The notes beneath the pieces were generated by a model. That model saw only the letters and a program-made list of their open reading frames with translations. It did no database searches and was not told the DNA's origin. Below, in pieces: positions 34,301 to 62,233 of a DNA stretch of 64,000 nucleotides. Origin of the DNA: a virus. Position numbers and translations under genes: made by a program. How positions within the stretch are numbered: the stretch's first letter is position 1; the number at the start of each line of letters is the position of its first letter. Location of the stretch: the IMG/VR virus record IMGVR_UViG_3300044701_004608, positions 1 through 64,000 of that record, one strand, 5' to 3'.

Positions 34301-36355
34301 TTACTTCTCGTGCGCGATGAACTCACCGTTCCAGTTATTAGGTAAGTTCTGCTCCTTCATGAACTCGCAACGTTCGATCCAGATCTTGTAATACTTGTCC
34401 ATCTGTCCACCGAACGAACCTTTCATCTTCTTACACATGGCTGCGGTCTCATCGAACTTTTTCTGTTTATATAAGGCATGCATCTTTTCATGTTGCTCTC
34501 GATCTTTGGTCCAATCTTCTCCGTTAGGACGTAAGGCTGTGTAGATCAAGTCTGCTACAGTCTTGCCTTTTGGCTGTAAGTTGTCTAGCATCAAGTAGAA
34601 GAAGTCGTCTTTAGTACGGTTGTATGTCTCGGCACCAATGATACACAATACGCCATATGCTTTACAACGTGCTTCTAGACGTGCGGCGGTTGAAACCATG
34701 TCGCCTAAGATGTCGTAACTGTGTCTATCAGTCGATCCCATCTCGCCGATAAAGCCAATACCAGTGTTACAACCCCAACCCATTGCGGCTGGTGGTAAAC
34801 CTTGTGCTTCCATTTCTTTAGTGTAGGCATCTACAGCATCTAACATCTGTAAGCCAACGGCAACGATCGTGCGAGCATGGTTAGGATCTTCGATCGGAGC
34901 ACCATGAATGTGCATACTCGCGTCACCTACATACTTGATGACCATGCCTTTGTTGTCCATGATAGGACGACTGATGGCATCCATGTAGCCGTTCATGTAT
35001 TTGCCGAGGCCAGCGACGTCATCACCATAGTGTTCACCAATGGGAGTGAAGCCACGCAGGTCTGAGAACATCACCGACACATCTTTGCGCACACCACGCT
35101 TGATCAAGTCGGGATCTTTCTGTAGCATCTCTACCACTTCTTTGCTACAGTATCCTGCGAACTGTTTTTTTATGGCTTGCTTCTGTAAGAACTCACTTAC
35201 AAACTTAACACCATAGGTGTGAAGAGCAACAAGCAAAAGACCAACAGTAGGTGCCGTCGCGTCGATGAGCACGTTTCGTGTAGTAAACATCCACCAAGAA
35301 CAAACAGCATAGGCAACGAGCCCAAGAATAGTTGTTGCGATACCGACATAAGTCCACCTCGATATTATTATTATTGTCAGAGATAGTGCCAGGAAAGCAG
35401 CCAGCTCAGCCATGTCGGCCCAGCCAGGTCGTTGAATATGGACGTTGTTAAACATCGTGCCGATCACAGCGGCTTGCACAGTTTGTGGCCACACGGATCC
35501 CTGTGCTGTGGCAACAGGGTTAGATAGGCCGGCGGCAGCGGTGCCCACGATCACTACAGCGCCACCTAGGTCTTGCGGTAGTTCAGTGAGCCCAACCGAT
35601 TTTGAAGTCTGGCTCCAGTCTATCCATATACGACCTAAGTCGTCTGTAGGTATGACGCCAAACTTGGGAATACGCATCTTCTCTACACCTAGCTCGTTGA
35701 GCTTGGCTTGGAAGTTGGGGTCACCAGCAATGACTCTCAGCACTTCCATAGAGAGTGCGGGATATACTTGATAGCCGGCTTTGTCGGGGACCGATACTAA
35801 TAACGGCATGCGGCGTGTGACGCCATCCACTTCAGGGAATGTGGTAGTGAGTCCCACACCCACGGCAGAGTTTTCCAGTCGTGGTATGTTGGCTATGATG
35901 CCGTCTACTGTGGGCAGTCGATCAGCGAACTGTGCGCCGATGATAGCGGCGCCAGGACTGCGTGGTTCGTTCTTGCCTTTAGGTGCTGCCACGTTGGGCA
36001 ATATCACTGGCAGTTCTCGCATGGCCTGTGACAGACGAGCATCGCCGCCGGAACGATCCGCCTCGGGCATCAAGACATTGAACACCACCAAGCCAGCACC
36101 GCGCTTGTAAAGGTCTTCGATGATGTTGGCGTAGATCTGACGAGGGAATGGCCATTGGCCATAACGCTCTAGCGCGGCTTCGTCGATGTTGACGGTGTAG
36201 ATATTGTTTTCTGTGGGAGTCTTGCTGGTGATCAGCGTGTCGAAGTATCTGAGTTTTATGCTTTCTACAAAGACAGGATTGGCGAGTATTGTAATTGCTA
36301 GAAAGACAACAGTGACCAGTGCCCACAGTGGGCTGAGTGCTATTTTTTTGAACAT
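34301..36355 (-). CDS. CHASE2-domain class III adenylate/guanylate cyclase
   Basis: IDE..L..YGQWPFPR (CHASE2), TM helices, FSDLRGFT, KYVGD, GDMVSTAARLE; start trimmed to MFKK. Confidence 0.92.
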   Translation of the reverse strand: MFKKIALSPLWALVTVVFLAITILANPVFVESIKLRYFDTLITSKTPTENNIYTVNIDEAALERYGQWPFPRQIYANIIEDLYKRGAGLVVFNVLMPEADRSGGDARLSQAMRELPVILPNVAAPKGKNEPRSPGAAIIGAQFADRLPTVDGIIANIPRLENSAVGVGLTTTFPEVDGVTRRMPLLVSVPDKAGYQVYPALSMEVLRVIAGDPNFQAKLNELGVEKMRIPKFGVIPTDDLGRIWIDWSQTSKSVGLTELPQDLGGAVVIVGTAAAGLSNPVATAQGSVWPQTVQAAVIGTMFNNVHIQRPGWADMAELAAFLALSLTIIIISRWTYVGIATTILGLVAYAVCSWWMFTTRNVLIDATAPTVGLLLVALHTYGVKFVSEFLQKQAIKKQFAGYCSKEVVEMLQKDPDLIKRGVRKDVSVMFSDLRGFTPIGEHYGDDVAGLGKYMNGYMDAISRPIMDNKGMVIKYVGDASMHIHGAPIEDPNHARTIVAVGLQMLDAVDAYTKEMEAQGLPPAAMGWGCNTGIGFIGEMGSTDRHSYDILGDMVSTAARLEARCKAYGVLCIIGAETYNRTKDDFFYLMLDNLQPKGKTVADLIYTALRPNGEDWTKDREQHEKMHALYKQKKFDETAAMCKKMKGSFGGQMDKYYKIWIERCEFMKEQNLPNNWNGEFIAHEK

Positions 36356-36369
36356 CAAGTATTTAGTGG

Positions 36370-36464
36370 TGCTCACTTCCGGGGTCCACGGTAGCGAATC
36401 GCTTTCCCCGCGCCAGCAGCCGGCGCACACTACGGTAACTTAATACCGGTCCTAAGGTGTGTCC
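36370..36464 (-). ncRNA. Candidate structured RNA, unassigned
   Basis: GC-rich intergenic stretch with several short stems: CACAC/GTGTG, CGGTA/TACCG, GCGCC/GGCGC, AGCG/CGCT, GGGG/CCCC. Confidence 0.45.
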
Positions 36465-48656: not shown

Positions 48657-49004
48657 CTATTGTAAGTCTTCGTTGGGATCATCGTCCAATTCTTCGCGGG
48701 CGAGATTCAACATGATTTGGTATTGTTCCCAGGCGTGTTGCACAGCAGGGTGTGTTTCACGGATGCGTTGGTCGGCACGGTGTTGATCCAAAATCTCGCG
48801 ATCTTCCAGCCAGCCACTGATTCCATCCCAGTTGGTGCCATCGAGTGTTATGGTATCTACTGTGTTTATGGTGTATGCGGGCTGTGCAGCGGCGTAATCG
48901 GAAATATCGATAGTGATATTGCTATCTGACAGATCGATGACGCAATCTGCGGATTCTGCGCCAGACTCGGCGGTGAAGATGAAGACGTCTTTATCGTCCA
49001 TCAA
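48657..49004 (-). CDS. Hypothetical protein
   Basis: ORF track; overlap-coupled. Confidence 0.7.
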   Translation of the reverse strand: MMDDKDVFIFTAESGAESADCVIDLSDSNITIDISDYAAAQPAYTINTVDTITLDGTNWDGISGWLEDREILDQHRADQRIRETHPAVQHAWEQYQIMLNLAREELDDDPNEDLQ

Positions 49005-49249
49005 TATAGACGTTTTGGTAGGCTTTCGTCGCGCAGTTTTTTCTGCCAGCGATTTTTCGCTGCCGCTTTCTTTTTCTTGCGGGTCACGTTGGGTTTCTCG
49101 TAAGTTTCACGATCACGGAGATCTTGTAGTTTTCCGCTTTCCATGATCTTCTTTTTGAATTTCCGGAGAGCTTTTTCCACATTACCATCTTGCCCCACGA
49201 AAACTGTGGAACCCATAAGCCTGCGATAAGGATCTTTGTTATATGACAT
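49001..49249 (-). CDS. rpsU: 30S ribosomal protein bS21
   Basis: VEKALRKFKKK, RETYEKP...RK.KK.AA..R. Confidence 0.9.
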   Translation of the reverse strand: MSYNKDPYRRLMGSTVFVGQDGNVEKALRKFKKKIMESGKLQDLRDRETYEKPNVTRKKKKAAAKNRWQKKLRDESLPKRLY

Positions 49250-49300: not shown

Positions 49301-49690
49301 CTATTCGGACAAATCAATCTTTTGCTGATTCTGTATATAAAGTAAAAAATATTCTTGTGCCGATTTGATGTGCTTGGCGGTTGATAGGAATCTTTTTGGG
49401 CCATAATGATAGGCTTTTTGGTGTTCAACTAAACGGTCTTTGATGGGAGAAATCTTTGAGGGTTCAGTATTGATCAACACCGTATCTACTAAATTAAACA
49501 CAGTTTCCAACCATTTAAGATCGTCAAAGATATCAGCATAGAGATAGACATCAAAGTCTGTTCCGGCAGTTTTACATATCATGCCTAAGTCTAATACAGT
49601 TTTTTGATTGGGGTCAATAACCAATACTGAATGGTTTTGTCTTTGTTCTAATTCGAGTATGTCTGGGGGGCTGATAAAGTTACTATGCAT
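49301..49690 (-). CDS. Hypothetical protein
   Basis: ORF track. Confidence 0.7.
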   Translation of the reverse strand: MHSNFISPPDILELEQRQNHSVLVIDPNQKTVLDLGMICKTAGTDFDVYLYADIFDDLKWLETVFNLVDTVLINTEPSKISPIKDRLVEHQKAYHYGPKRFLSTAKHIKSAQEYFLLYIQNQQKIDLSE

Positions 49691-51356
49691 TTTTTCCCGA
49701 AATTTTTAGATATTCATCAACTTGTGCTCGTTCGATATCATTAAGATCATCGCGGTCGTATTCACCGGATTTAATGCGTTCAACGAGATGCAGTATATAT
49801 TGTTCGTTATAGGCATAAGAATCTGTGGATTTTTTATCAACCTCTATCCACTTAGTGCCGTTCCATTTGAAGAGTTTGCTTGGCAAGTAATCTACTCGAA
49901 GATAGAGATCTCCTTTGTTGGGATCGCTAGGGAAGCCGCTACCGAAACTGACCTCACCGCCGGACAGTGGCACATCATTGACATCAGCTACCAACGAAAA
50001 CTCTTCTTCGAGATTTTTTGGCATCGTTGTTAGCTGTGATTTTTGTTTAAATTGGTTGAGTTCATTGATGGCTTGTTCAGCGGCTATCAAGGCTTCTTCC
50101 ATTTGCACATGCAAATCATTTTGTTGCTGTCTTAGGTCTTCAATCTCTTTGTTTTTCTTTTCGATCTCAACCGAGAGCACCGAATTGCGCTCAGTAATTT
50201 CAAAATTTTCTTTCTTTCTTTGATCTGCTATCTCTATAAAAGACGTGAGTTCAGTATCAATAGTCCTGATCGCTGTTTCAAATTCTTGGATCTCAGAGTT
50301 TAATTTTTCTATATGTTGAGTCTGCTGGCGTATAGTTTCTTCGTAGGCGATCTGTTGTTGTTCGATTTCTTGTATGGATCGTGCCTGATCAATTATAAGA
50401 TCAACATCGATTTCGGGTTCGATCTGTTGTGCTAGTTCGTTAGCACGATCAAGGTCGGACAGATCTTCATTCGCCACTGGTGCTTGCGCCAGTTCGTTAC
50501 CCTCCTCTTTCTCGATCTCTTTTTTCCTCATCACTTCTCGATGATGGTCTTCGGTTTCAAAGTTTATTCCTTTAGCCCATTCGATCTGTTTGCTACCGGC
50601 AAGGATCAGCACGATAGCCAGTGGGTCGAACACTAGAACGATGAGTATGATCACCCAGCGCACGGCTTTTTCTAGTGTATTGGTATCAGGATTGTCACCA
50701 TAGATCAGTGCGGCCACATATTTCACAGGACCCACTTCGGCTTCGATCTTGCGAAGATCTTTGGCTATAGGTGCTTTCTGTTCTTGTAACTTTACGATAT
50801 TGGCCTGGGCCTGTTCGACTTGCTTGGTTAGTGCGGCACGATCTCGGGCCTGCTGTCTGCGGATCTGTAATGAGCGTTCAGCCGCACTATTAAGTTTAGT
50901 GGAACCATCTTTTAATTTAACTTCTTGATCCCCACTGGCGATGACACCATTGACGGCGGCGTCCATCTGTTTGATGACTGCTTGTGCGTTGGCGATATTA
51001 TCACGCTCGATCTTGATCTTCTCATCGATGAGTGCTACCTGCGCGGCCACATCACCGGTGGGTACAGTCTGATCGAGGTGTGCCTTGGAAAGGAACCCAA
51101 AGATGCCCATGCTGGTGAGTAACATCAAGAAAGCCAGGGCAGGCACTAGATAACATTTATATGTCCAGGTAGCTCGACCCCAGTTGCGATGCAACCATAC
51201 AGCAGTCATGAGCTTGCCGGCCTCGAGCGCACCGCCCATGATCACGATGGGCCAGAAAGCCGCCGCGAATATGGCTGTGAGACCTAATATGGAGTAATAG
51301 GCAGCGACCACAGAAATCACTATGGCCACTGCCAGAGTCGCTATACCTAAAAACAT
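49683..51356 (-). CDS. Membrane-anchored coiled-coil phage protein
   Basis: N-terminal TMs, VFDPLA, long heptad region, FP..P.KGD..LRVD C-terminal module. Confidence 0.8.
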   Translation of the reverse strand: MFLGIATLAVAIVISVVAAYYSILGLTAIFAAAFWPIVIMGGALEAGKLMTAVWLHRNWGRATWTYKCYLVPALAFLMLLTSMGIFGFLSKAHLDQTVPTGDVAAQVALIDEKIKIERDNIANAQAVIKQMDAAVNGVIASGDQEVKLKDGSTKLNSAAERSLQIRRQQARDRAALTKQVEQAQANIVKLQEQKAPIAKDLRKIEAEVGPVKYVAALIYGDNPDTNTLEKAVRWVIILIVLVFDPLAIVLILAGSKQIEWAKGINFETEDHHREVMRKKEIEKEEGNELAQAPVANEDLSDLDRANELAQQIEPEIDVDLIIDQARSIQEIEQQQIAYEETIRQQTQHIEKLNSEIQEFETAIRTIDTELTSFIEIADQRKKENFEITERNSVLSVEIEKKNKEIEDLRQQQNDLHVQMEEALIAAEQAINELNQFKQKSQLTTMPKNLEEEFSLVADVNDVPLSGGEVSFGSGFPSDPNKGDLYLRVDYLPSKLFKWNGTKWIEVDKKSTDSYAYNEQYILHLVERIKSGEYDRDDLNDIERAQVDEYLKISGKNA

Positions 51357-51415: not shown

Positions 51416-51625
51416 TCAACCGAGAATAGTAGGTTTCCACGCCAAACACCAGTATTCTGGACGTACTGGTGCGAACCAGCGACGGCACTGCCCAGAATCG
51501 AAATAGCCGCAATTACCACAGGCTTGGCTTCCCGGTGTTACACCGGGCACACCCGAAAGCTGATATTCGGGCGGCAGCTTTGGGCATATAGGTGTGCCAT
51601 CGGGATACAGCCTCTGGTCACTCAC
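51416..51625 (-). CDS. HiPIP-like 4-Cys small protein
   Basis: CGNCGYF-x4-C-x11-WC.AW pattern. Confidence 0.55.
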   Translation of the reverse strand: MSDQRLYPDGTPICPKLPPEYQLSGVPGVTPGSQACGNCGYFDSGQCRRWFAPVRPEYWCLAWKPTILG

Positions 51626-52400
51626 TGGACGCCTCCGTGAAACGATCTGGGAACTGCAGGACTATGCCTTTGGCGAATATGTCCGAAAACGCTGGCGTGC
51701 CATCATACTGTCCGGCCAGGATGATACGGTGCGCTGTGTCCACCGCTTCGATATCGGCAGGCCAGTTTTTGCTGACGCGGGCACGACATTGTTCGATCCA
51801 GGCCTGGAGCACTTTGCCAAAGATGGCCTTGACCACATCGGCGGGCCAGTGCTGGGGGTTGGCTTTTTGTGCGAAGTTGGCGAAATCGTCGAGTTCGGCA
51901 TCGACTTTCTTGACTAAGGCATCGATGTTGCCGCCTTTCTTGAGCGTCTGCACGATCTCTAGTACTGTGAGTACAAACGATCTCATGTATTGTGCCAACT
52001 GTTTGCTGGCTACTAATCCATAGTAGGGGCGAACCGAGTCACCGATCTCGTCGATGTTTTGGAACAGTTGCTCTTCGACCACGGCCAAGTCTTCGCCGTT
52101 GTGCAAGGCGCTGGTGATGTAGTTGCGCAGTCTCCACAGGTATCTAGCCCAGATGGTGCGCTGGTCCATGCGCCAAGTCACAGCGGGTTCTGTGTTGAAC
52201 ACCGATATCGTGCCGGGCACATACATGGCTGTTTCTGTGACCACTACGCCGTTGCCGTTGGGGTTACCGTTGCCGTTGGTGTAGCCGTTGCCGTTAGTGT
52301 AGCCGTTGCCGTTGAGTTTGACGCCGTTGATGGCTTCCAGGGCCAAGGGATGATCAAAGTGTTCTTCTTTGATGGTGTGTGTTATGAGTTTGTAAACCAT
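51618..52400 (-). CDS. Helical-bundle protein with NG repeat; paralogue of 56341..56955
   Basis: W..Y.WR.R, YYG, NP..W, GIV.Q.PDRF shared with paralogue. Confidence 0.8.
   Translation of the reverse strand: MVYKLITHTIKEEHFDHPLALEAINGVKLNGNGYTNGNGYTNGNGNPNGNGVVVTETAMYVPGTISVFNTEPAVTWRMDQRTIWARYLWRLRNYITSALHNGEDLAVVEEQLFQNIDEIGDSVRPYYGLVASKQLAQYMRSFVLTVLEIVQTLKKGGNIDALVKKVDAELDDFANFAQKANPQHWPADVVKAIFGKVLQAWIEQCRARVSKNWPADIEAVDTAHRIILAGQYDGTPAFSDIFAKGIVLQFPDRFTEASSE
52248..52313 (-). repeat. Coding tandem repeat NGNGYT/NGNGNP (18-bp unit)
   Basis: Repeated gccgtt units. Confidence 0.8.
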
Positions 52401-52415
52401 TTTAAATCTCCTTTG

Positions 52416-52937
52416 TTAAGATTGTTGTACATTGGCGATGACCCACCATGCGCCGTTTTGTCCCAGCAGAGTCACTGACTCATAGGGTTGTTGCAATTCA
52501 AGTTCTTGATCTCTGCCTTCGAGATCGTTGCCACCTTGTGGGATGATCTTGGTCTTGTAGCCGCCGGGGCCACGCTGGTCCTTGATGATCAGGATCCTAC
52601 AGATGGCACCTATCACTGGCAGTTTGATATCCACTGTCTTGCCCACGGATGGTTTGACGACTCCGATGTAGTAGTCATCGCTTTGTACCGTGTAGTCGGC
52701 GTTGACATAGCGTGTGACGCAGTTGTGATTACCCCCGCCACCGTTGGCGCTCAATGTACCATCGGCGGCCACTGTGAGACCTGTGCCGACCTTGACCACG
52801 CCCAGATCAGTGGTGGTGGCGATGTCAGCATCGATTTCAAAGTCCACGTTGCCAGCAGGCGCTGTAGGATCCGGAGGTATGCTTTGTTTCAAGGCTCGCC
52901 CTGCTCGCACTGCGGTGGGTGCGCGGAAGTAACTCAT
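52416..52937 (-). CDS. Fibre-like modular protein (modules A+B)
   Basis: TDLGVVKVGTGL and DDYYIGV...IIKD motifs. Confidence 0.75.
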   Translation of the reverse strand: MSYFRAPTAVRAGRALKQSIPPDPTAPAGNVDFEIDADIATTTDLGVVKVGTGLTVAADGTLSANGGGGNHNCVTRYVNADYTVQSDDYYIGVVKPSVGKTVDIKLPVIGAICRILIIKDQRGPGGYKTKIIPQGGNDLEGRDQELELQQPYESVTLLGQNGAWWVIANVQQS

Positions 52938-52946
52938 GATCGCTCC

Positions 52947-53339
52947 TTAGACCACGTGCCATTCCGTGCCACGGAAGATGAAACTCACTGATCCGTAAGT
53001 CACGGTGTTGACGAAAGTGGCAGATCCATCGATGGTCTCGCCGCCAGTACCTTGGATGGTGATGTTGCCGGATCCTGGGCCCAGTTCGTCTTTGATGATG
53101 AACATCTTGCCATCGGTGCCAGTGGGCAGCGTGATGGTAGTGGCCACAGCCGAGTTCACTCCGATGTAGTAGTCATCGTTGGTGGCCGCGTAGTCCACTG
53201 TGACCACTGTAGTATTGTAGATGGGATTGCTGGGCGAGCCGCCTGTGACAGAGATCACGCCCCCGGTGATGGTTATTCCTGTGCCGGCCTGTACTAGGCC
53301 GAAATCTGTGGTTGATGCTAAAGGTACTTTGTATGACAT
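52947..53339 (-). CDS. Fibre-like modular protein (modules A+B)
   Basis: TDFGLVQAGTGI and DDYYIGV...IIKD...TIDG...GTEW. Confidence 0.75.
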   Translation of the reverse strand: MSYKVPLASTTDFGLVQAGTGITITGGVISVTGGSPSNPIYNTTVVTVDYAATNDDYYIGVNSAVATTITLPTGTDGKMFIIKDELGPGSGNITIQGTGGETIDGSATFVNTVTYGSVSFIFRGTEWHVV

Positions 53340-53351
53340 GGTGTTTTCCTT

Positions 53352-53906
53352 TTATAGTTGTATGATGGTGCATCTCACGCTGGGTGTCGCTGGTCGGATG
53401 GGCCCAACTTGTGCAGGTGTAGTCAACAATCGCATGTTGACATCAGTGCTTTGCCAAGCGACCTGTATGTTGTCGCCGGCGTTTAACGCCACGGTGAAAT
53501 TCCACGACGCCACCAACACTCCCACGGTGCCTTCCACTGACACCTGAGAGTTGGTATTGGGATAGGCTGTGCCATTGCGTATCAGCCATAGGTCTGCGAG
53601 ATCCGTCCCAGCGTCGGTCTTGTCGATCTGTATCACGAACTGGAAGTTGTAGTTGGCATCCTTGCTCACAGTGATCTGGGAGCCACCCACCAATGTGATG
53701 CCCACGTTGATGGCAGAGTTGTCAAATGTGATGATGTTGACAGCGTTGGCCACTGGGTTGGTCTGTGTCTGTGTGCTGAAAAAGTAGGCTTGATCCAGCA
53801 AGGCCACCGGCACCACGCTGATCACCCCATCAGTGACAGACAGTCCGGAGCCGGACTGTACCACTCCATAGTCACCGGCGGTGCTGATGGGCTGCTTGTA
53901 GGTCAT
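53352..53906 (-). CDS. Module A plus C1q/BclA-C-like beta-sandwich protein
   Basis: GDYGVVQSGSGL; ITF...ITV...YNFQF...LNAGD.I. Confidence 0.7.
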   Translation of the reverse strand: MTYKQPISTAGDYGVVQSGSGLSVTDGVISVVPVALLDQAYFFSTQTQTNPVANAVNIITFDNSAINVGITLVGGSQITVSKDANYNFQFVIQIDKTDAGTDLADLWLIRNGTAYPNTNSQVSVEGTVGVLVASWNFTVALNAGDNIQVAWQSTDVNMRLLTTPAQVGPIRPATPSVRCTIIQL

Positions 53907-54340
53907 TACACCACGTTCCATTCCGTGCCGTTGAACACCAGGGTTATGCTGGCATAGTCGGTGTTGAGCACATAAGTGGCAGCACCATCTATGGTGTTGC
54001 CGTTGCCGGACACTGTTATGTTGTTGGTGTTGGCGTCACCGTCGATGTCCTTGATGATCAAGACCTGTCCCACGATGGGACTGGCTGGCAGCACCACAGT
54101 AGCTGGTGCCGCTATGTTCACGCCCAGATAGTAGTCTCCGGGTTGCACGGCGTAGGGCGTGGAATTCACTATCGTGACATTGACCGGGCTGGGACTGCCA
54201 GTGAATGTGCCTAGATTGATGAAGTCATTTCCCCAGCCACCAATGCTGTTGTTGAGTTGTGACACTGGCGCAGGGCGTGCTACGGGTAAGAGACCCGGGC
54301 GGCGTGGGCGGAATATTATCGGGCTGTAGTACTGGAACAT
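53906..54340 (-). CDS. Fibre-like protein (module B)
   Basis: DYYLGV...IIKD...TIDG...NGTEW. Confidence 0.75.
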   Translation of the reverse strand: MFQYYSPIIFRPRRPGLLPVARPAPVSQLNNSIGGWGNDFINLGTFTGSPSPVNVTIVNSTPYAVQPGDYYLGVNIAAPATVVLPASPIVGQVLIIKDIDGDANTNNITVSGNGNTIDGAATYVLNTDYASITLVFNGTEWNVV

Positions 54341-54742
54341 TTATTTTTCCTTGTTTTCGTCAATGATGTCTTGTGCGGTCAACACCTGTTTGACCTTGTT
54401 GATTTTTTTGGTCACTTCGTCCAAATTGGAGAATAGTGGGCCGGCCGCGGGTGCTTGTTCCACTGGTTCTTCAACTTCTGATTCTTTGTCGTCAACGACG
54501 AACTTGAGAAGTTGTTCGGCCCGCTCTAAAATCTGTGCTTCTGTGGGATAAGGTGCGAATGGTGGATATGGCAAGCGTTCCCGGCGAGTTTTCCACACCA
54601 GATCAGCATCTGCCAACCACTTGTTGTGATCTTCGGCGCGCTTGTTGATGTATTCTTCGTTGAGGAGGGTGCGCGCCATCCTCAAGACCTCCATCCTATG
54701 TTTGGCTAGTTCAATGTCCTTGTCTATCATTGTTGTCCCCAA
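54341..54742 (-). CDS. Phage protein paralogous to 11949..12176
   Basis: R.E.L..A..L...LPYP...PT...I...AE.L..FV shared. Confidence 0.75.
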   Translation of the reverse strand: MGTTMIDKDIELAKHRMEVLRMARTLLNEEYINKRAEDHNKWLADADLVWKTRRERLPYPPFAPYPTEAQILERAEQLLKFVVDDKESEVEEPVEQAPAAGPLFSNLDEVTKKINKVKQVLTAQDIIDENKEK

Positions 54743-54930
54743 TCACTGCGGTTCCATAATCTTTCATGTATGATATAACTGATAGAGTTGATCACCAGTG
54801 TGGCAGCTCCTATCGATAGTCCTTTCCAGGGATCTCCAGTCACTACCCAACCCACTGTGCTGTTAGTGATCATCATCCAGATCCTCCAGGTCAGAGTTTT
54901 GACTGCTGTGCGTGTCAGTGTGTCTGTCAT
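54727..54930 (-). CDS. DUF2061-like small membrane protein
   Basis: R..VKTLTWR...HERLWN...WG. Confidence 0.75.
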   Translation of the reverse strand: MTDTLTRTAVKTLTWRIWMMITNSTVGWVVTGDPWKGLSIGAATLVINSISYIIHERLWNRSDWGQQ

Positions 54931-55178
54931 TGCCAGCGATCTAGCACGATAATCAGCACAGAGATCAAGGCTGTGGCTATTGAAACTGCTGTACCCACTA
55001 CCTTGATCGTCTCTTGTCGATGGTGGTCACGATATTCTTTGAGCCGGGCCAGATCGTGTTCGGCCTCATCTATTCGTTTCTCGAGTGCCTGGTATCGTTC
55101 ATGGCACAATTCTACATGTGCCTCAAGGTTGTCGCGCTCGATGCCGAGATACTTTTTGGCTGTGACCACAAAACTCAT
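54927..55178 (-). CDS. Coiled-coil plus C-terminal TM protein (XhlA/holin-like)
   Basis: LEAHVELCHERY coiled coil; TM tail. Confidence 0.65.
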   Translation of the reverse strand: MSFVVTAKKYLGIERDNLEAHVELCHERYQALEKRIDEAEHDLARLKEYRDHHRQETIKVVGTAVSIATALISVLIIVLDRWQ

Positions 55179-55182
55179 TGTG

Positions 55183-55443
55183 TTAACCCACTACAGTTGG
55201 TGTAGAAGTCTGCGCAACGGTATCCATGTCGCCGGTGTTTATCAAACGCTGACCTGACACTGCACTACGGTTGTAGTTGCCTACAAATGTGTTGTTGGCA
55301 CTTTGTACCGCGCCTACCCCAGGATAACCGTATCCCACACCGTATCCGCCAAATCCATAATTTGGCCATCCCCAGCCGCCCCATGGGTAACGACGGTGAG
55401 CAAAGCTACCGTAGAAGGGGTGGTGATGATATAAACTAAACAT
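55183..55443 (-). CDS. Gly/Tyr/Trp-rich protein with C-terminal NTGxM...QTSTPT motif (86 aa)
   Basis: AAGGAG RBS at MFSLY start. Confidence 0.75.
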   Translation of the reverse strand: MFSLYHHHPFYGSFAHRRYPWGGWGWPNYGFGGYGVGYGYPGVGAVQSANNTFVGNYNRSAVSGQRLINTGDMDTVAQTSTPTVVG

Positions 55444-55459
55444 ATTCAATCTCCTTGTT

Positions 55460-55490
55460 AAAAGACGAGCAGGGATCACCCGCTCGTCTA
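55460..55490 (-). terminator. Internal terminator/attenuator hairpin
   Basis: AGACGAGC-GGG-TGAT-CCC-T-GCTCGTCT-TTT. Confidence 0.65.
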
Positions 55491-55497
55491 CTCTCAA

Positions 55498-55644
55498 TTA
55501 CCAGTAATAGGGACCGTAACCCCCACCGTAGTAGGGATAACCGTATCCATATCCCCAATATGGGTAGGCTAAGCCCCCATAGTAAGGATAACCAATACCG
55601 GCTGCCAGGTAAGGCCTGGCGTAACCCCAGGGCCTATAGAACAT
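55498..55644 (-). CDS. 48-aa Gly/Tyr/Pro micropeptide (not in ORF track)
   Basis: MFYRPWGYARPYLAAGIGYPYYGGLAYPYWGYGYGYPYYGGGYGPYYW; GGAGG RBS. Confidence 0.75.
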   Translation of the reverse strand: MFYRPWGYARPYLAAGIGYPYYGGLAYPYWGYGYGYPYYGGGYGPYYW

Positions 55645-55659
55645 GGTCTCTTCCTCCGA

Positions 55660-56223
55660 TTAAGTGATCGAAGTTGGAGTCGATGTCTGTGTAGTACCTG
55701 TCATGGTTCCGGTATTGACCAGACCTTGGCTAGAGATTGCACTGTTCAGTGCGTTGATAGCGGCTACGCTGTTAGCGCTCTGGTAAGCACTGACAGCACC
55801 ACCGTAGGCTAGACCTAGACCACCATAGAGACCGTTAAGACCTGTCAGAGCTGTGTTGGTATTGATCAGAGCCGTGTTGAGGTTTTCACGGTTGATGCCG
55901 TTGATGAGCTGGCGTGTGAGTTCAGCTTGACCCATCACAGCTTCGCGTGTGCGAGCAGCTTCTTGCATGACGAGTGCGTCAGTGCGAGCGGCGGCCAACA
56001 TAGCGGCTGTGTTAGCATCATTTACTGCCTGCTTGGTAGCAGCCAGTGCCTGGTCCGTGTGGAATGCTGTTTGCATAGCACGGTTGTTGATGTCGTTGCT
56101 TTGTGCGACTTGAAGTTTGTAGTTTTCGAAAACGCTGTCAGAAACTTTTGTGTTTACGGCCTGGATCTGTGCGCTCAGGGCGTAGAAAGGATCTGTTGTG
56201 AATGCTCCTGTTACATCTGCCAT
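55660..56223 (-). CDS. Ala/Asn/Gln-rich helical protein with C-terminal NTGxM...QTSTPT motif
   Basis: AAGGAG RBS; own promoter and 5' hairpin. Confidence 0.8.
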   Translation of the reverse strand: MADVTGAFTTDPFYALSAQIQAVNTKVSDSVFENYKLQVAQSNDINNRAMQTAFHTDQALAATKQAVNDANTAAMLAAARTDALVMQEAARTREAVMGQAELTRQLINGINRENLNTALINTNTALTGLNGLYGGLGLAYGGAVSAYQSANSVAAINALNSAISSQGLVNTGTMTGTTQTSTPTSIT

Positions 56224-56272
56224 TTTAGTAGTCTCCTTGTAAATGGTGTTATACCGGACGTCCCGGTATAAT

Positions 56273-56327
56273 TACTTAGAAGCAAATGGCCAAGAAAAAG
56301 CCAGGCTTGAGCCTGGCCTAGTACTTG
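56273..56327 (-). promoter_or_regulatory. CAAG-N11-CTTGGC-N10-TAAGTA operator/promoter overlapping a terminator
   Basis: Same architecture at 57662-57699. Confidence 0.6.
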
Positions 56328-56340
56328 AGTGATGCGATGA

Positions 56341-56955
56341 TCACGTTGCTATGGCAAATCTATCGGGACTCTGTTGTACTATCCCCGAAGCAAACACATG
56401 GGCCAATTGTCTAGCTGTGTCGAAGCATCTGTCAGTCGCAGTGAGATCCTCGTTCCAGTTTTTAATCAACCTCATATTGATCTGCGAAAACCATGTCTCT
56501 ACTAAATCCATCAATTGATTTTTGATATTGAGCATGTTCCATGCTCCGGGATTGAGTGTAGACATGAGATCAAATAATTCAGATGCACTGTTTTTTAATT
56601 TAGTCACTAAATCCTGCACGAACATGTCTGTGTTGATATTAAAATTTACCGGAGGTTTCTTGATATAATCTAACAACTGTATCATTTCAGTAGTCTGTGC
56701 CTCCATGATAGTACGCCATCGCTGTGCTGAATCAGTACCATAGTAATCATTGATGGTATCGAAAAAATCAGAGATGTTAGCCATGACCCATTCTCTCGTG
56801 ACTGGCATCTCAGGCATCCCATTCATTACAGCTACTAGGTGGCTACGATTTCGCCAGACATAATCGTTCCAGAGGTCGCGGGACCTGGCATGGAAATTGC
56901 CTACTTTGGCAGGATCTTCTTGGAAGTATTGTGTTGTGGTGACTTTGTAAACCAT
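56341..56955 (-). CDS. Helical-bundle protein; paralogue of 51618..52400
   Basis: Both start MVYK and end GIV.Q.PDRF; start trimmed. Confidence 0.8.
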   Translation of the reverse strand: MVYKVTTTQYFQEDPAKVGNFHARSRDLWNDYVWRNRSHLVAVMNGMPEMPVTREWVMANISDFFDTINDYYGTDSAQRWRTIMEAQTTEMIQLLDYIKKPPVNFNINTDMFVQDLVTKLKNSASELFDLMSTLNPGAWNMLNIKNQLMDLVETWFSQINMRLIKNWNEDLTATDRCFDTARQLAHVFASGIVQQSPDRFAIAT

Positions 56956-56957
56956 TT

Positions 56958-57638
56958 TTATAACCTCGCTCCATTGTTGACTGCCAGGGCCAGTTGTGTA
57001 CGGTTCCTGACACCGTATCGTTTCAAGATGGCACTGACATGTATTTTCACTGTGCTTTCTGATATGTTGAGTTGGCGTGCGATGGCTTTGTTTGACAAGC
57101 CTCGTTCGCACAACAGTTTCTGTACTTCTTGCTGACGATCTGTGAGTGTGACTTCGTCGCTGTGCGATTTGGTGTCTGCTTTAGAAGTCTGCTCCATACA
57201 TTCACGGGGCCAGAAATCCTGACCTTTGGTGAACATCTCTTCATAGGCTCGCTGATTCAGATAATAGTCGAAATCGTCGATGTGTGGGATCACTCCCGAG
57301 ATGCCCATGTCCTTGAATGCTTTGACCTGTTGCCGTGTCAAGGGAGTCCTTAATAATACCAGGAATTTGCTATCCACTTCGCCGAATCGACAATCAAGGA
57401 ATATCTTGAAACCCAGCACGAGGTCCCGGAATCGTTCGTTAAATTCATCGACGATGTTTTGATCGATGGAGATGAACTTGGGGGGCGAGTCGAGATGGGA
57501 GATGAACCCAAACGCTTGCCTGACATTGTTGGCCGACAAGGGTTGGAACCCAAACTGTTTGCCTCGGTCATTGAATACCTGTGATTGTTTTAGATTCGCA
57601 GAGATCCTCAATCCCAGTGGTGTGTTTTCCGTGTGCAT
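56958..57638 (-). CDS. LuxR/NarL-family regulator with degenerate receiver-like N-terminus
   Basis: LTDRQQEV...[36 protein letters not shown]. Confidence 0.9.
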
Positions 57639-57661
57639 TAGAATTCCTTTTCTTACATAGA

Positions 57662-57699
57662 TACTTACATCGTAGAAGCCAAGGAAAACTAGTACTTGG
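57662..57699 (-). promoter_or_regulatory. CCAAG-N11-CTTGGC-N10-TAAGTA upstream of the LuxR gene
   Basis: Matches 56273-56309. Confidence 0.6.
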
Positions 57700-57880
57700 A
57701 CGCGGGTCATACTTCATTAGGGTCTCGGTATGACTGTTGTATACAAAGATACACGATATTTTTTCACAGTCAATACTCCCGGGAGTATGTATTTCGTCGT
57801 GCGGCACAACACGCATTAAGATATTTTGACACATCCACCACAAAAAAAAACGGCACCTTAGTGCCGTCAATAACTATATG

Positions 57881-58213
57881 TCAGTGTGTGTTGAGACTTG
57901 GTGAATATTGCCGAATCAATTCACGCTCACGGGCATGGGCGGGTTTGCGTCCACGCACGATCTCGATGAGACCGTAAGTGTGAGCTTCGGGGCCATGCTC
58001 TCTAATACTTTCGCATAGTGCCCATGACTTGTTTTCGGTGAGTGCTCTGCGGATGTGCTTCTGGATGCGGATTTTAAGAGCGCGGCGTACTTGGCTACCG
58101 CACACAGTGATGCCGATATACTGCTCGCCAGTCTGGGTGTTAGTGATACAGTAGACAGCATGTTTGGTGTCCTGTCTACGGCGTCTTTTTGGGGTGGGAT
58201 TTCTCATTTCCAT
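57881..58213 (-). CDS. GIY-YIG nuclease domain protein
   Basis: VYCI...YIGIT...R...H, E.ELI....P.LN. Confidence 0.85.
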   Translation of the reverse strand: MEMRNPTPKRRRRQDTKHAVYCITNTQTGEQYIGITVCGSQVRRALKIRIQKHIRRALTENKSWALCESIREHGPEAHTYGLIEIVRGRKPAHARERELIRQYSPSLNTH

Positions 58214-58219
58214 AATAAT

Positions 58220-58248
58220 ATTATACGAAAATGGGAATAATTGGTCAA
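58220..58248 (-). promoter_or_regulatory. Early promoter TTGACC-N17-TATAAT
   Basis: Hexamers plus ATTCCCATTT spacer. Confidence 0.8.
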
Positions 58249-58254
58249 CCAAAA

Positions 58255-59201: not shown

Positions 59202-59507
59202 TTATTTGAAAAGTATCAGTGCCATCAACGATGCTTGGATCACGAAACCGATGCTGATAGTGATCATTATCACCAGGTCTTTGACTAATATAGATCTGAT
59301 GAAATATAACAGCAATGATGTCCATACGAAAAACACGACATCTATGCTTGGTACTTTATCAGTCAGTCCTTTGAGCACGGCCAGCAGGCTTGGGATAGTC
59401 GCCGCATGTAACATCACGACAGCGAGCCAACCCATGGTGTCTGCGCCCATGCGGCCGAGATTGGTTTTAAGATAATTCTTTGCGGTATCAAACAATGATT
59501 TAAACAT
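59202..59507 (-). CDS. Small three-TM membrane protein
   Basis: Hydrophobic ORF. Confidence 0.75.
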   Translation of the reverse strand: MFKSLFDTAKNYLKTNLGRMGADTMGWLAVVMLHAATIPSLLAVLKGLTDKVPSIDVVFFVWTSLLLYFIRSILVKDLVIMITISIGFVIQASLMALILFK

Positions 59508-60106
59508 CAGATATCCTTACTTTTATCTTTGTAAAAAATATGTCTACCGATCTTGGTGATCTTTTCTTTGTTCCAGCGAGGGTTGACATAATCGGCATGA
59601 TAATACAAGGCGCTATTGAGTCCGGGAAGTCTAAAGTTTTCTAATAGCACACGTTTGGCTACATCATAGCTTTCTTGGTAGACCGTATCATTGACTGGTC
59701 GCTGGCGATGCGTGCCATCACAGTACCAGCTGAACTGGCAGACCACTTTTTCATAGACGATATTCTTTTGATAAACTACCTGGCAGATCTCGCTGGGGAA
59801 TTGTCCCGAAGCGGCCCGGTTCAATGTCACTTGGGCGACTGCTACTTTGCCTTCGAATGATTCATATCCTGCTTCTTTGTAGATATTCATCGCCAAGCAT
59901 GAAAGTTGTTTGTCCCGGTCGGCCATGGTCACGAAATTCTGTTTCCAGGGTGCGCCGGACGATTTGAGTTTGTCGAACTTGTGATCAGTCACGAAGGTGA
60001 TCACCGAAACTGCTAATACCACAGAGACGAAGGCCATGAATACTTCTACCAACATCTCCACTACTTTTGAAGTCGACGAATCATCTGCTAATGTTACGAA
60101 TTGCAT
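59507..60106 (-). CDS. Cell wall hydrolase, SleB/Hydrolase_2 family
   Basis: CLA.NIY.EA, VAQVTLNR, CQFSW, YYHADYV.P.W, IGRHIFY. Confidence 0.92.
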   Translation of the reverse strand: MQFVTLADDSSTSKVVEMLVEVFMAFVSVVLAVSVITFVTDHKFDKLKSSGAPWKQNFVTMADRDKQLSCLAMNIYKEAGYESFEGKVAVAQVTLNRAASGQFPSEICQVVYQKNIVYEKVVCQFSWYCDGTHRQRPVNDTVYQESYDVAKRVLLENFRLPGLNSALYYHADYVNPRWNKEKITKIGRHIFYKDKSKDI

Positions 60107-60247: not shown

Positions 60248-62233
60248 TTATGTAGCCAGATTACGGCCTTCGTAGAGAGCGGCGATCACAGCATCACCAC
60301 CTCTGGAATCTGCGGATAGGCCCAATTCTTCGATGAATCGGCCCAAACCTAAGTTCTGTTTGTCCACACCATATTGATGTAGTTTTTCAGCGAAACCGGT
60401 CACTCCCATATATCCAGTGGGGCCATCGTATTTGAGATTTATGCTGGCGGCGGTGAGTGCGCCTTGCTCTTGATCCAGCGCCATTTGTATCTGGGCCAAC
60501 GCTTTATTGACTTTATCTACATCAACTGGATTTGGTAATGTCTTCGAAACAGAAACTAGATATTGTAGATGCTCGAGTATAGGGCCCTCTGAGGATATAG
60601 ATCCCAACATCTGGAATACGCCCGGAGTTCCGTTTGGTGTGGCTGTTGCTGGAACAGGTGGCTCTTCGGGGCGCGGAGAACCGATAGCCGCCAGATCAGG
60701 CAGACCACGATTCAGACGTTCAGTGTTCACACGATCCCAAACGATATGGTCATCACCGGTATAAGTGAGATCCTCGTCAGGTGTTTTCGTGTACAACGAT
60801 GTATCGATGGCGCCACCGGCTGCGAATCCGTCCATCTTTAATGGAATGCTAGGGACGCCAGGTATGTTAGGTACCTTGGGTATATGTCCGGGCATCGATG
60901 GTGCGCTGAGATTTTTAGGAATGCTTATACCCGACAAGGAGAACATCTCCGATAGCCCTTCCCGTGACTCGTCGGGTACCAATGCTTCATTCATCGGTGG
61001 CAGGGATAACGATGTAAATTTACCTTTGAGAGAATCGCTGAGTTGGCTGAAATCGGGAGGGGCTGCCATGAGATGCTTGAGATCAGGGACTTTAGTTCCA
61101 GAAAGTTTTTTCCCGATATCCGAGAAATTTCCAGTACCAGCTACTGTTTGTAATCCAGCGCCTAACGACGACATATCTCCGCCACCGGAAAAACTGGTAG
61201 ATGATGCTTCTGCATCTTTCTCAGGTTGTGGGGATCCAATCTCTTCTAGCCCGGGCAAGTTTCTTTTAAGACGCTCAGCATTGACCCTCTCCCATACGAT
61301 ATAATCGTCCCCGGTGTAAGTGAGATCCTCGTCGGCGGTTTTAGCATAAAGTGCTCCTGTAAACGGGACATCAAATTTTGGAGCGCCGGCTGCTGATGGT
61401 GTCGCTGACAACGCGGCCGGAGAAAGTACTTTAGAAGCATCAAGCGCATCGCCAAGATTACCTAGTTTTTCTACTGGGAATCCGGTCGACCTTCCTACCG
61501 CTAAAAGGTCGCTGCCCCCGACTTCCGACAAGACTTTTTTCAAAGTAGTTTCGTCATCGTCTGACAGGTCGTTGATATCAATGCCTGCGCTCGATAGTCT
61601 TTCAGTGACCGAACTAGGTAATGCTCCTTGGGCACTGAGGTTCTTAATCAATGATGAAGCTTTGCCTAAGTCAGCTAGGGAATTAGTATCATACATAGAA
61701 CCAAATCCCTTGAGGTTGTCCCCCAACTTGGACATAGCAGCGGCTCCGCCGGGGAAAGAACCAGTCTTGCCGCCTGTGACGAGATCCTGAATATTATTGA
61801 TGTTGGGACCAAAGTCAGTGAATGATTTAAAAGAGTTTAAGGCCGCGGCCGAATCTAATATACCATTACTAGTGGCAGATGCCCCGCTCGATGCCTGGAA
61901 GATACTGACGAATCTTCGTATCGCTTGTTCATCGGGTACGATCTGATATGTTCCCTGGTCATCGAATTGGACTGTGCCTAACAAACGTCCAATACGTGCT
62001 CGAAGATTACCTAGAACGACCGACCGTGGTAGATCTGCTAAATCTGATGCTCCAGGCCATAACTCGGTCACTGTTGGTTCTTCGCCTTCGGCGACAGGAG
62101 TACTACTCGTACCAGTCCACTCTTCGAGCTTTTTACAATCCACGATAGCATCTAGTATGTCTCTAGATGGTGCTAGTCCATCACCTTTGAGCAGGAAATC
62201 CATCGCTAATAAAACTATAGGAGTCTGTGCCAT
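60248..62233 (-). CDS. Large hypothetical protein, probably tail/baseplate-associated, with an internal 43-aa duplication
   Basis: Follows PAAR gene; repeats at 61223-61351 and 60668-60796. Confidence 0.7.
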   Translation of the reverse strand: MAQTPIVLLAMDFLLKGDGLAPSRDILDAIVDCKKLEEWTGTSSTPVAEGEEPTVTELWPGASDLADLPRSVVLGNLRARIGRLLGTVQFDDQGTYQIVPDEQAIRRFVSIFQASSGASATSNGILDSAAALNSFKSFTDFGPNINNIQDLVTGGKTGSFPGGAAAMSKLGDNLKGFGSMYDTNSLADLGKASSLIKNLSAQGALPSSVTERLSSAGIDINDLSDDDETTLKKVLSEVGGSDLLAVGRSTGFPVEKLGNLGDALDASKVLSPAALSATPSAAGAPKFDVPFTGALYAKTADEDLTYTGDDYIVWERVNAERLKRNLPGLEEIGSPQPEKDAEASSTSFSGGGDMSSLGAGLQTVAGTGNFSDIGKKLSGTKVPDLKHLMAAPPDFSQLSDSLKGKFTSLSLPPMNEALVPDESREGLSEMFSLSGISIPKNLSAPSMPGHIPKVPNIPGVPSIPLKMDGFAAGGAIDTSLYTKTPDEDLTYTGDDHIVWDRVNTERLNRGLPDLAAIGSPRPEEPPVPATATPNGTPGVFQMLGSISSEGPILEHLQYLVSVSKTLPNPVDVDKVNKALAQIQMALDQEQGALTAASINLKYDGPTGYMGVTGFAEKLHQYGVDKQNLGLGRFIEELGLSADSRGGDAVIAALYEGRNLAT

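Follow-up and report, generated by a model that had tools for sequence, protein, structure and literature searches.

The fourteen-gene cassette and its relatives

The stretch of DNA analyzed here (the window) makes up positions 1 to 64,000 of a viral record of 111,782 nt, IMGVR_UViG_3300044701_004608 of IMG/VR, which comes from a freshwater metagenome and whose completeness is put at about 32% by CheckV. Between positions 51416 and 57710 it contains a block of 14 genes, g01 to g14, all of whose open reading frames (ORFs) lie on the minus strand; order and contents are as listed in the initial annotation, which saw in them a LuxR-headed operon for a possible self-assembling protein coat or matrix. 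We propose tentatively that this block, called the cassette below, is a late accessory module for a fibrous appendage of the virion. Its genes, with their positions in the window, are the following:

56958..57710, minus strand: g01, GerE/LuxR-type helix-turn-helix regulator, 250 aa (PF00196 at residues 188-242)
56341..56955, minus strand: g02, helical protein A (paralogue of g13), 204 aa, bearing a degenerate form of the N-terminal tag
55660..56223, minus strand: g03, signature gene of the cassette; 187-aa protein predicted to be a coiled-coil rod, with a Q/N/T-rich tail conserved at its C-terminus
55498..55644, minus strand: g04, 48-aa Gly/Tyr/Pro peptide (Y 33%, G 25%)
55183..55443, minus strand: g05, 86-aa Gly/Tyr peptide ending in a g03-type tail (independent E-value, iE, of 2.4e-11 with a hidden Markov model, HMM, of the tail)
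54927..55178, minus strand: g06, 83 aa, N-terminal coiled-coil segment and C-terminal membrane anchor, as read from the sequence
54727..54930, minus strand: g07, DUF2061 membrane protein, an accessory insert (PF09834, E 1.8e-14, 54.3 bits for a cut-off of 23.1)
54341..54742, minus strand: g08, 133 aa, conserved N-terminal helical domain of about 85 aa and variable C-terminus (22 homologues)
53906..54340, minus strand: g09, mini-fibre with a C-terminal beta-sandwich (PF25692, 27.7 bits for a cut-off of 25)
53352..53921, minus strand: g10, mini-fibre with a putative C1q-like C-terminal head (tblastn; phrog_746, minor tail protein)
52947..53339, minus strand: g11, mini-fibre combining the N-module of g10 and the C-module of g09 (blastp, 46% identity to g09 and 34% to g10)
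52416..52937, minus strand: g12, mini-fibre with its own N-terminus and a g09-type C-terminal domain (blastp, 37% identity to g11 and 30% to g09)
51618..52400, minus strand: g13, helical protein A'; in the AlphaFold2 (AF2) model, the tag MVYKLITHTIKEEHFDHP and a disordered linker rich in NG precede a bundle of seven helices
51416..51625, minus strand: g14, 69-aa HiPIP-like four-Cys protein by its cysteine pattern, without signal peptide

A scan of IMG/VR with g03 returned 29 loci, in which tblastn and ORF maps revealed the same gene order. The block is therefore no chance run of genes, and the co-occurrence across large phages on which the proposal of a coat had been staked is found. In these loci, a LuxR-type gene is followed by one or two copies of g03 and by two Gly/Tyr peptides of about 57 and 66 aa. 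Then follow A-type helical proteins, of which there are one or two, a small membrane protein with a tail anchor, g08 and four to six fibre-like proteins; the end of the locus is made of a HiPIP-like protein (in some loci), another A-type protein and, in most loci, a papain-family protease. Counted over the 20 loci with adequate flanks, the LuxR gene is present in 17, the A family in 18, g08 in 17, g09/g11-type genes in 19, g10 in 13, g12 in 14, the HiPIP-like gene in 8 and the papain-like protease gene in 16. The DUF2061 gene is confined to the two nearest relatives, loci L003 and L004. Relatives also have additions of their own, namely an Ice_binding-like protein (1.8e-30 with PF11999) and repeats of the collagen type (4e-36 with PF01391).

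Neither blastn of the entire cassette nor tblastn of g03 and A' gave a match in 50,697 isolated or deposited phage records. A locus search with protein A as a single-sequence query also returned no loci, because this sequence is too divergent. NCBIfam holds no family for the cassette proteins, no description of the cassette was found in the literature searched, and the 'moraphage' jumbo-phage paper does not mention its features (PMC12619734). The remark in the initial annotation that no described system has this layout thus stands for Pfam, PHROGs, NCBIfam, PDB and the literature searched. The likeness to spore coat and exosporium that it had put forward finds no support: the Cot, Exs and Bcl families of Pfam and NCBIfam are unmatched by all 14 proteins.

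Relatives of g03 are found on contigs of 284-332 kb, which indicates a jumbo phage. The isolates closest to the phage of the window are the T4-like phages Melnitz and HTVC008M: a 709-aa cyclase-like protein of the window is 44% identical to its counterpart in Methylophilales phage Melnitz and 37% to that in Pelagibacter phage HTVC008M. This protein (34301-36430, minus strand) matches phrog_35576 at E 7e-179, and is annotated in both isolates as an adenylate/guanylate cyclase domain protein. Moreover, two related cassette-bearing contigs encode the T4 gp21 protease (PF03420; 100 and 91 bits) as well as the gp23 capsid protein (PF07068; 328 and 259 bits). Taken with the likeness to Melnitz and HTVC008M, this indicates a T4-like lineage. 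Among 185,579 species genomes, g03 matches a single one, at 90% identity, on a 10-kb contig (L039) binned with a Chitinophagales metagenome-assembled genome (MAG). It is probably a phage contig binned with that MAG, and provides a weak lead to a Chitinophagales host.

Proteins and control signals of the cassette

The signature protein g03 is rich in alanine (18%), threonine (13%) and asparagine (10%). More than 768 relatives are present in a metagenome protein collection, with a mean column identity of 65% and a long invariant stretch, KVSDSIFENYKLQVAQ.NDINNRAMQ, while neighbours of g03 are just 25-45% identical between the same loci. The search for relatives returned no longer fused forms. 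No match to g03 exists in Pfam, PHROG or PDB, hence no similarity to fibritin and no foldon. PDB profile searches with g03 and the A family yielded only de novo bundles or noise, and the ESM Atlas only viral hypothetical clusters for g03. AF2 folds the g03 monomer into one helix (residues 12-165) with a predicted template modelling score (pTM) of 0.32, which suggests that the fold is incomplete as a monomer. In a three-copy model, residues 12-115 form an in-register parallel bundle, with an ipSAE of 0.58, whereas the best of three controls reaches 0.00; contacts agree between runs to at least 57%, and the pLDDT of the partner is at least 62. The mark of 0.58 is reached by 20 of 30 proteins solved as one-chain pairs and by 1 of 23 solved as single chains, counts that are only roughly valid for three-copy g03 because the calibration used two copies. 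The model supports self-association of g03, at a copy number that it leaves unfixed, three being the sole number tried. As regards the main product of the cassette, the self-assembly proposed in the initial annotation is thus supported, in the form of a modelled coiled coil whose tail is shared with a Gly/Tyr peptide.

This shared tail was followed with an HMM of the last 32 residues of g03, which finds it on the Gly/Tyr peptide of about 66 aa in essentially every locus (29 ORFs, iE to 1e-13), with no significant match beyond g03 and the Gly/Tyr peptides. In five loci, g03 has VGAGAVGG instead of NTGTMTGTT, and the Gly/Tyr peptide there has IGAGAIGG. At the level of sequence, then, the tail types of the two proteins change in concert, possibly through a single event. 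A segment of g09, FINLGTFTG, was considered as a relative of the tail and rejected (iE 2.7, not significant). The window's own tailed peptide, g05, is 86 aa long from position 55443, and not 104 aa; its homologues begin with MFSLY. The other Gly/Tyr peptide, g04, is conserved in L003 to L006 and has positional equivalents at every locus inspected.

Four modular fibre-like proteins of 130-189 aa (g09 to g12) occupy positions 52416-54340. Their modularity, already noted in the initial annotation, is confirmed: a C-terminal domain is common to g09, g11 and g12 (30-46% identity), and an N-terminal module to g10 and g11. To state that the cassette has no recognizable tail gene was too strong, as g09 scores above the cut-off of Phage_depo_C and is matched by tail-fibre families of PHROG, among them phrog_972 (tail fibre, proximal subunit) at 5.7e-13; g11 gives 17.3 bits with PF25692, under the cut-off of 25. 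By tblastn, the head of g10 matches larger proteins, at their C-termini, of Limnohabitans phages DC31 and DC33 and of Acinetobacter phage phiAC-1; in phiAC-1, the gene concerned comes immediately after the capsid gene. Further matches of the head are records that their depositors annotated as C1q-like or cerebellin, and it is through these annotations that the link to C1q is made, g10 having no C1q match in Pfam. The BclA/C1q-like features that had been pointed out would be present as putative C1q-like heads in the window, and relatives have collagen repeats, such as the L005 homologue of g09 (PF01391, E 4.2e-36); GXY repeats are absent from the window's genes. Upstream of the fibre genes, g06 has 19 homologues at the same cassette position, and g08 has no family in Pfam, PHROG or NCBIfam and no usable lead in the ESM Atlas. 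The cassette sequences, as read, contain no signal peptides, so that assembly would be cytoplasmic.

Protein A starts at MVYKV (56955) and is not the 256-aa ORF; no Pfam, PHROG or PDB family was found for it. Its paralogy with A' was recognized correctly (E 1.9e-18, 27% identity), as was the NG-rich linker of A'. In the AF2 model of A', pLDDT is about 97 over residues 66-260, which form a seven-helix bundle, and under 50 over residues 8-64. Foldseek found no match to this model in PDB at E <= 0.001. A wide search with VIA-align gave microbial rhodopsins as best matches (Z 9.2, root-mean-square deviation 4.8 over 167 residues), and we reject this kinship, the Z value being under the meaningful level for helical bundles and the resemblance one of generic seven-helix arrangement. 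In BFVD, the model matches proteins of uncultured phages, a Bodo saltans virus protein and a Tupanvirus ORFan, and a profile search of 1.8 billion representatives places the A domain in 3,495 clusters at 50% identity. Cellular members of the family (P0122, P0247, P0258, P0180 and P0133) have a signal peptide, one to four A domains, and fusions to a cupredoxin, CBM6 or type IX secretion system (T9SS) sorting domain. From their sequences, they appear to be an unannotated family of secreted domains with four conserved histidines. These four histidines of the inspected cellular domains are not kept in the phage A family, for which metal binding is therefore unlikely.

A 17-aa sequence, MYKKITHxIxEEHFDHP, heads 23 ORFs that encode A-type proteins, HiPIP-like proteins or a third domain (VPLMIRLLE...), and is followed by a disordered linker. 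Within the five related records searched, this tag is restricted to the cassette. In one metagenomic protein, a single chain comprises a HiPIP-like, a VPxMIRLLE and an A domain. The tag is found together with the papain-like protease among the loci sampled, and the loci devoid of LuxR have neither.

As to g14, residues C36, C39, C47, C60 and W63 are invariant in nine sequences and agree with the spacing C-x2-C ... C ... C-x2-W. The best PDB profile match is the HiPIP PioC, with four aligned cysteines but a weak E-value of 0.078, followed by two more HiPIPs at E 2.7 and 9.8. No Pfam family matches at E <= 0.1, PF01355 included. The protein starts with MSDQRLYPDG and has no twin-arginine translocation (Tat) leader, in the place of which its relatives bear the cassette tag. 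The label HiPIP-like is thus sustained by the cysteine pattern, similarity being limited to the weak match to PioC.

The regulator g01 matches PF00196 with 57.9 bits (the Pfam cut-off is 23.5), and its relatives with 41-55 bits. A homologue lies directly upstream of g03 in 17 of the 20 loci with full flanks. Residues 1-180 match no Pfam family at E <= 0.1, hence no autoinducer-binding or receiver domain, and the same is true of longer relatives. Three signals are found around g03:

56298..56319, minus strand: intrinsic terminator closing the LuxR-A unit, with a 9-pair stem ahead of a T run; L003 and L004 have it too
56250..56279, minus strand: cassette-specific element CTAAGTAAT upstream of g03 (56271-56279), then a hairpin in the 5' leader (56250-56270)
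55464..55488, minus strand: hairpin and T run behind g04, a candidate attenuator by sequence reading, folding at -20.2 kcal/mol

The terminator (56319-56298) separates LuxR and A from g03, and the cassette is consequently not the single LuxR-headed operon that had been described. The element CTAAGTAAT occurs once in the window. More generally, g03 has its own upstream element, TAAGTAAT: the motif TAA[GC]TAA is found 50-110 nt upstream of 24 of 39 g03-family genes, for an expectation of 0.024 per 140 nt. The leader hairpin folds in the window at -15.9 kcal/mol and is separated from g03 by a strong Shine-Dalgarno sequence; between loci its stem and place are kept and its sequence varies. A palindrome upstream of g03, TATACCGG-N5-CCGGTATA, was considered as a LuxR operator and rejected, since its sequence is not conserved while the hairpin persists. 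We read it as a 5' RNA stem-loop, and TAAGTAAT as the conserved DNA element. In all three loci devoid of LuxR, a perfect T4 late promoter, TATAAATA, is found 63-97 nt upstream of the first g03 gene, where TAA[GC]TAA sits in the LuxR lineage. The module is therefore a late unit in that sister lineage; in the window, TATAAATA is not enriched. Judging from these motifs, the cassette of the LuxR lineage has a private promoter, which the adjacent GerE-type protein would activate. The 'conditional' expression evoked in the initial annotation would likewise be LuxR-dependent.

A proposed accessory appendage of the virion and its alternatives

We favour the view that the cassette is a late, dispensable accessory module that builds a composite fibrous appendage of the virion, 'hair' or whiskers on the head, neck or tail, and give it a probability of about 0.4. 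The protein families of this appendage appear to be undescribed in the databases searched, and its status would be comparable to that of T4 whiskers, Hoc or accessory tailspikes. This view rests on the late promoter of the sister lineage, the lack of signal peptides, the coiled-coil rod, the apparent dispensability, and the fibre-type modules, which have homologues in virion-gene contexts and interchangeable anchors and heads. Dispensability is suggested by locus L019, where a chimeric ORF (L019:3213-3437) joins the N-terminus of the Gly/Tyr peptide in frame to the last 29 or so residues of the papain-like protease, everything in between being missing. If the contig is genuine, the interior of the cassette is non-essential.

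Such an appendage could be made as follows. The dedicated GerE/LuxR-type regulator would turn on the module-specific promoter ahead of g03 through the TAAGTAAT element, a role taken by the T4 late promoter in the lineage devoid of LuxR. The highest-expressed product would be g03, owing to its own promoter, a stabilizing 5' hairpin, a strong Shine-Dalgarno sequence and the attenuator after the next gene. It would form a parallel coiled-coil rod, about 15 nm long in the model, and the Q/N/T-rich tails of g03 and of the Gly/Tyr-rich peptide would act as a common joint, either binding each other or binding one shared partner. Four to six short fibres with interchangeable N-terminal anchors and C-terminal heads would provide adhesive tips, the heads being of beta-sandwich and C1q-like types, with collagen and ice-binding-like types in relatives. 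Assembly factors could be g08 and the tail-anchored g06. The helical-bundle and HiPIP-like proteins would be recruited by the shared 17-aa N-terminal tag on its flexible linker, and in most relatives the terminal papain-like protease may process these components.

Several observations weigh against this proposal. The virion location of the cassette proteins is deduced here from gene sequences. The cassette lies outside the head and tail morphogenesis clusters, with gp21/gp23 about 30 kb away in one related contig (G001) and more than 70 kb away in another (G004). Head genes were not found in the window's own 111-kb fragment, nor was PF03420, in a fragment estimated to be 32% complete; PF03420 is present in two related contigs. 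A papain-family protease is also absent from the window's record. A dedicated transcription factor, membrane proteins, Gly/Tyr peptides and a HiPIP-like protein are unusual in a fibre module, and a Fourier scan of g03 reveals no clean 3.5-residue (heptad) period. Lastly, a single 10.7-kb contig shows the deletion of L019, which may result from an assembly artefact or belong to a defective genome.

The closest known systems are the fibritin (wac) and the long tail fibres (gp34-37, with gp57A and gp38) of T4. In both cases, a T4-type phage would express late a non-essential parallel coiled-coil rod, join separate fibre proteins end to end and use small helical assembly factors, and g09 matches a PHROG built around the gp34-type proximal fibre subunit. 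However, g03 shows no relation to fibritin in sequence or Pfam and lacks a foldon, the cassette proteins are far smaller, and the cassette has in addition a regulator of its own, Gly/Tyr peptides, a C-terminal tail that is shared, membrane proteins and a HiPIP-like protein. Several receptor-binding heads on interchangeable N-terminal anchors are also a trait of multi-tailspike adapters (CBA120 and G7C type) and of phiAC-1-type capsid fibres, from which the cassette differs in that its mini-fibres, of 130-189 aa, are devoid of large enzymatic beta-helix bodies. A further parallel is the nap of the Bacillus exosporium, made of BclA, with its collagen-like stalk, C1q-like head and N-terminal peptide anchor. 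Short trimer-type filaments, collagen repeats (in relatives), putative C1q-like heads and short conserved N-terminal anchors on varied bodies would be common to both. In contrast, the cassette has a phage context, no match to BclA, ExsY/CotY, ExsFA or a coat family, no Cys-rich basal-layer protein and, in the window, no GXY repeats.

Four other scenarios are considered. The cassette could direct a structure separate from the virion, a matrix, shell or layer associated with the envelope that self-assembles late, inside the infected cell, on its surface or around particles after their release, with the membrane proteins as anchor and the tagged proteins as cargo or decoration. The dedicated regulator and promoter agree with this, as do the signals flanking g03 and g04, which suggest very high expression, the modelled coiled-coil self-association of g03, and the co-varying Q/N/T tail that links the rod to a Gly/Tyr peptide. 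So do a tail-anchored membrane protein conserved at a fixed position, a tag, flexible linker and folded domain that together resemble cargo-targeting peptides, and the far stronger conservation of g03 relative to its neighbours (65% versus 25-45%). Still, no known coat, S-layer, microcompartment, encapsulin or gas vesicle family is matched, no signal peptide would allow export, the mini-fibre modules are of the virion-fibre kind, and the sister lineage uses an ordinary T4 late promoter; we hold this scenario to be unlikely. Of the coat or matrix initially proposed, synteny, modelled self-association and the collagen and putative C1q-like parts remain, whereas g09 to g12 map to phage fibre, depolymerase and tip modules, so that the objection of ordinary fibre components applies in part, and spore-coat families are unmatched. 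On balance, the evidence favours an appendage of the virion over a shell like the spore coat. A bolder version is slightly less unlikely in our eyes: an undescribed composite material, in which g03 rods and Gly/Tyr peptides are held together by a co-evolving C-terminal zipper, studded with collagen/C1q modules, loaded through the tag with helical-bundle and Fe-S-type proteins, and built, under the control of the cassette's regulator, not as a conventional fibre but as an outer coat or as a body within the cell or associated with its envelope. By analogy only, keratin filaments and the high-glycine-tyrosine keratin-associated proteins offer a comparable association of coiled-coil rods with co-encoded small Gly/Tyr-rich peptides; there is no homology, the analogy coming from composition and the shared tail.

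The two remaining scenarios place the products in the virion, as does the appendage. In one of them, the tagged subset (A', the HiPIP-like proteins of relatives and the VPLMIRLLE protein) comprises internal head (ejection) proteins, and MYKKITHxIxEE acts like the capsid targeting sequence (CTS) of T4, cut after I-x-E by a gp21-type prohead protease; the cassette would then be a hypervariable 'virion accessory' region mixing internal and external parts. The T4 CTS reads MKTYQEFIAE. It corresponds to the first 10 residues of IPIII, of which residues 8 and 10 govern processing (PMC9026906). The cassette tag holds I9-x-E11, and thus resembles the CTS in position and in its I-x-E motif. It hardly varies among proteins that are otherwise about 25% identical, and it stands on three unrelated domains; the PF03420 protease is encoded in related contigs, and the scaffold and capsid proteins of a related contig have several L/I-x-E sites near their N-termini. 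The internal proteins of T4 are likewise diverse, clustered and non-essential (PMC9026906). Yet the cassette tag is longer (17 aa), its conservation continues past the putative cleavage site (EHFDHP), a disordered linker of 30-60 aa comes next, unlike in T4 internal proteins, and the motif is internal in one protein. Moreover, among the loci sampled it tracks the papain-like protease and is absent without it, so that this protease could be the processing enzyme. As far as these sequences tell, the tag would rather have a role within the cassette, given its link to the protease and its conservation beyond the putative cleavage site, and we find the internal-head scenario improbable. Least likely of all, in our opinion, is that the cassette consists of ordinary essential genes for host recognition, tail or baseplate fibres with their chaperones, the unknown proteins being unannotated assembly factors. 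Indeed, g09 to g12 match PHROG and Pfam families of tail fibres, tail spikes, baseplate proteins and depolymerases, N-terminal motifs of the type T-T-x-G-V-V-x-V-G, common in phage fibres, are present, and small coiled-coil chaperones have a precedent in T4 gp57A. However, the proteins are just 130-189 aa long, and separate large fibre genes, judged from N-terminal sequences only, lie elsewhere in the record, at about 79-85 kb. The cassette interior is deleted in L019, and the regulator, the Gly/Tyr peptides, the HiPIP-like protein and the papain-like protease have no counterpart in known fibre modules; g03 and A' are also absent from the isolated or deposited phage records.

The module is widespread among contigs of freshwater jumbo phages, and nearly all its members are without Pfam, PHROG, NCBIfam or PDB assignment. 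If it builds a virion appendage, it would represent a new way for large phages to make modular adhesive surfaces; if it builds a separate assembly, it would be a new phage-made material with a portable targeting tag, of interest for protein scaffolds. The analysis has three by-products: a confidently folded 7-helix domain family found in bacteria (where it is fused to cupredoxin), phages and giant viruses; a module-specific promoter element paired with a phage LuxR-type regulator; and a signal-less HiPIP-like protein in phages. Of the HiPIPs, PioC of Rhodopseudomonas palustris (PDB 6xyv) has the same arrangement Cys-x2-Cys ... Cys ... Cys-x2-Trp, with four cysteines aligned to g14. In contrast to HiPIPs, g14, whose match is non-significant (E 0.078), has no Pfam match and no Tat signal and would be cytoplasmic, and its relatives are fused behind the cassette tag or to an A domain.

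Possible exchange of the cassette, and neighbouring genes

Comparison of L003 with the window (51416-58252) reveals a sharp mosaic boundary. Genes g03 to g08 are 98-100% identical and g09 to g12 85-92%, and a GIY-YIG gene upstream is 95% identical, with LuxR and protein A, in between, at 46-50%; genes further upstream are at 47-65%. Such a pattern suggests a recent exchange of blocks between otherwise different phages, with a homing-endonuclease-like gene adjoining them. In the window, LuxR has this GIY-YIG endonuclease-like gene (57881-58252, minus strand; E 7e-4, a weak Pfam match) immediately upstream, and many loci have homologues near the cassette, sometimes in inverted orientation.

Directly downstream of the cassette, the window encodes a 557-aa protein (49683-51356, minus strand) with an N-terminal multi-pass membrane region and a long coiled coil. 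A C-terminal piece of it matches a 'virion structural protein' PHROG (3e-7), and L006 and L017 have homologues in the vicinity of the cassette; the 557-aa protein could be part of the cassette system. Further down, an 82-aa ORF (49001-49249, minus strand) resembles ribosomal protein bS21 by sequence reading only. On the upstream side, a cell-wall hydrolase-like protein (59507-60106, minus strand; endolysin PHROG, 1e-20) adjoins a 661-aa protein (60248-62233, minus strand) with the internal repeat TYTGDD.IVW.RVN.ERL... Together with a 101-aa membrane protein, these two may constitute a lysis region beside the cassette. In contig G004, two tandem paralogues of 122 and 135 aa starting with MAFTNKLHG... 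(L034:474-1293) come right after the gp23 homologue, and are candidate head-decoration proteins of the lineage.

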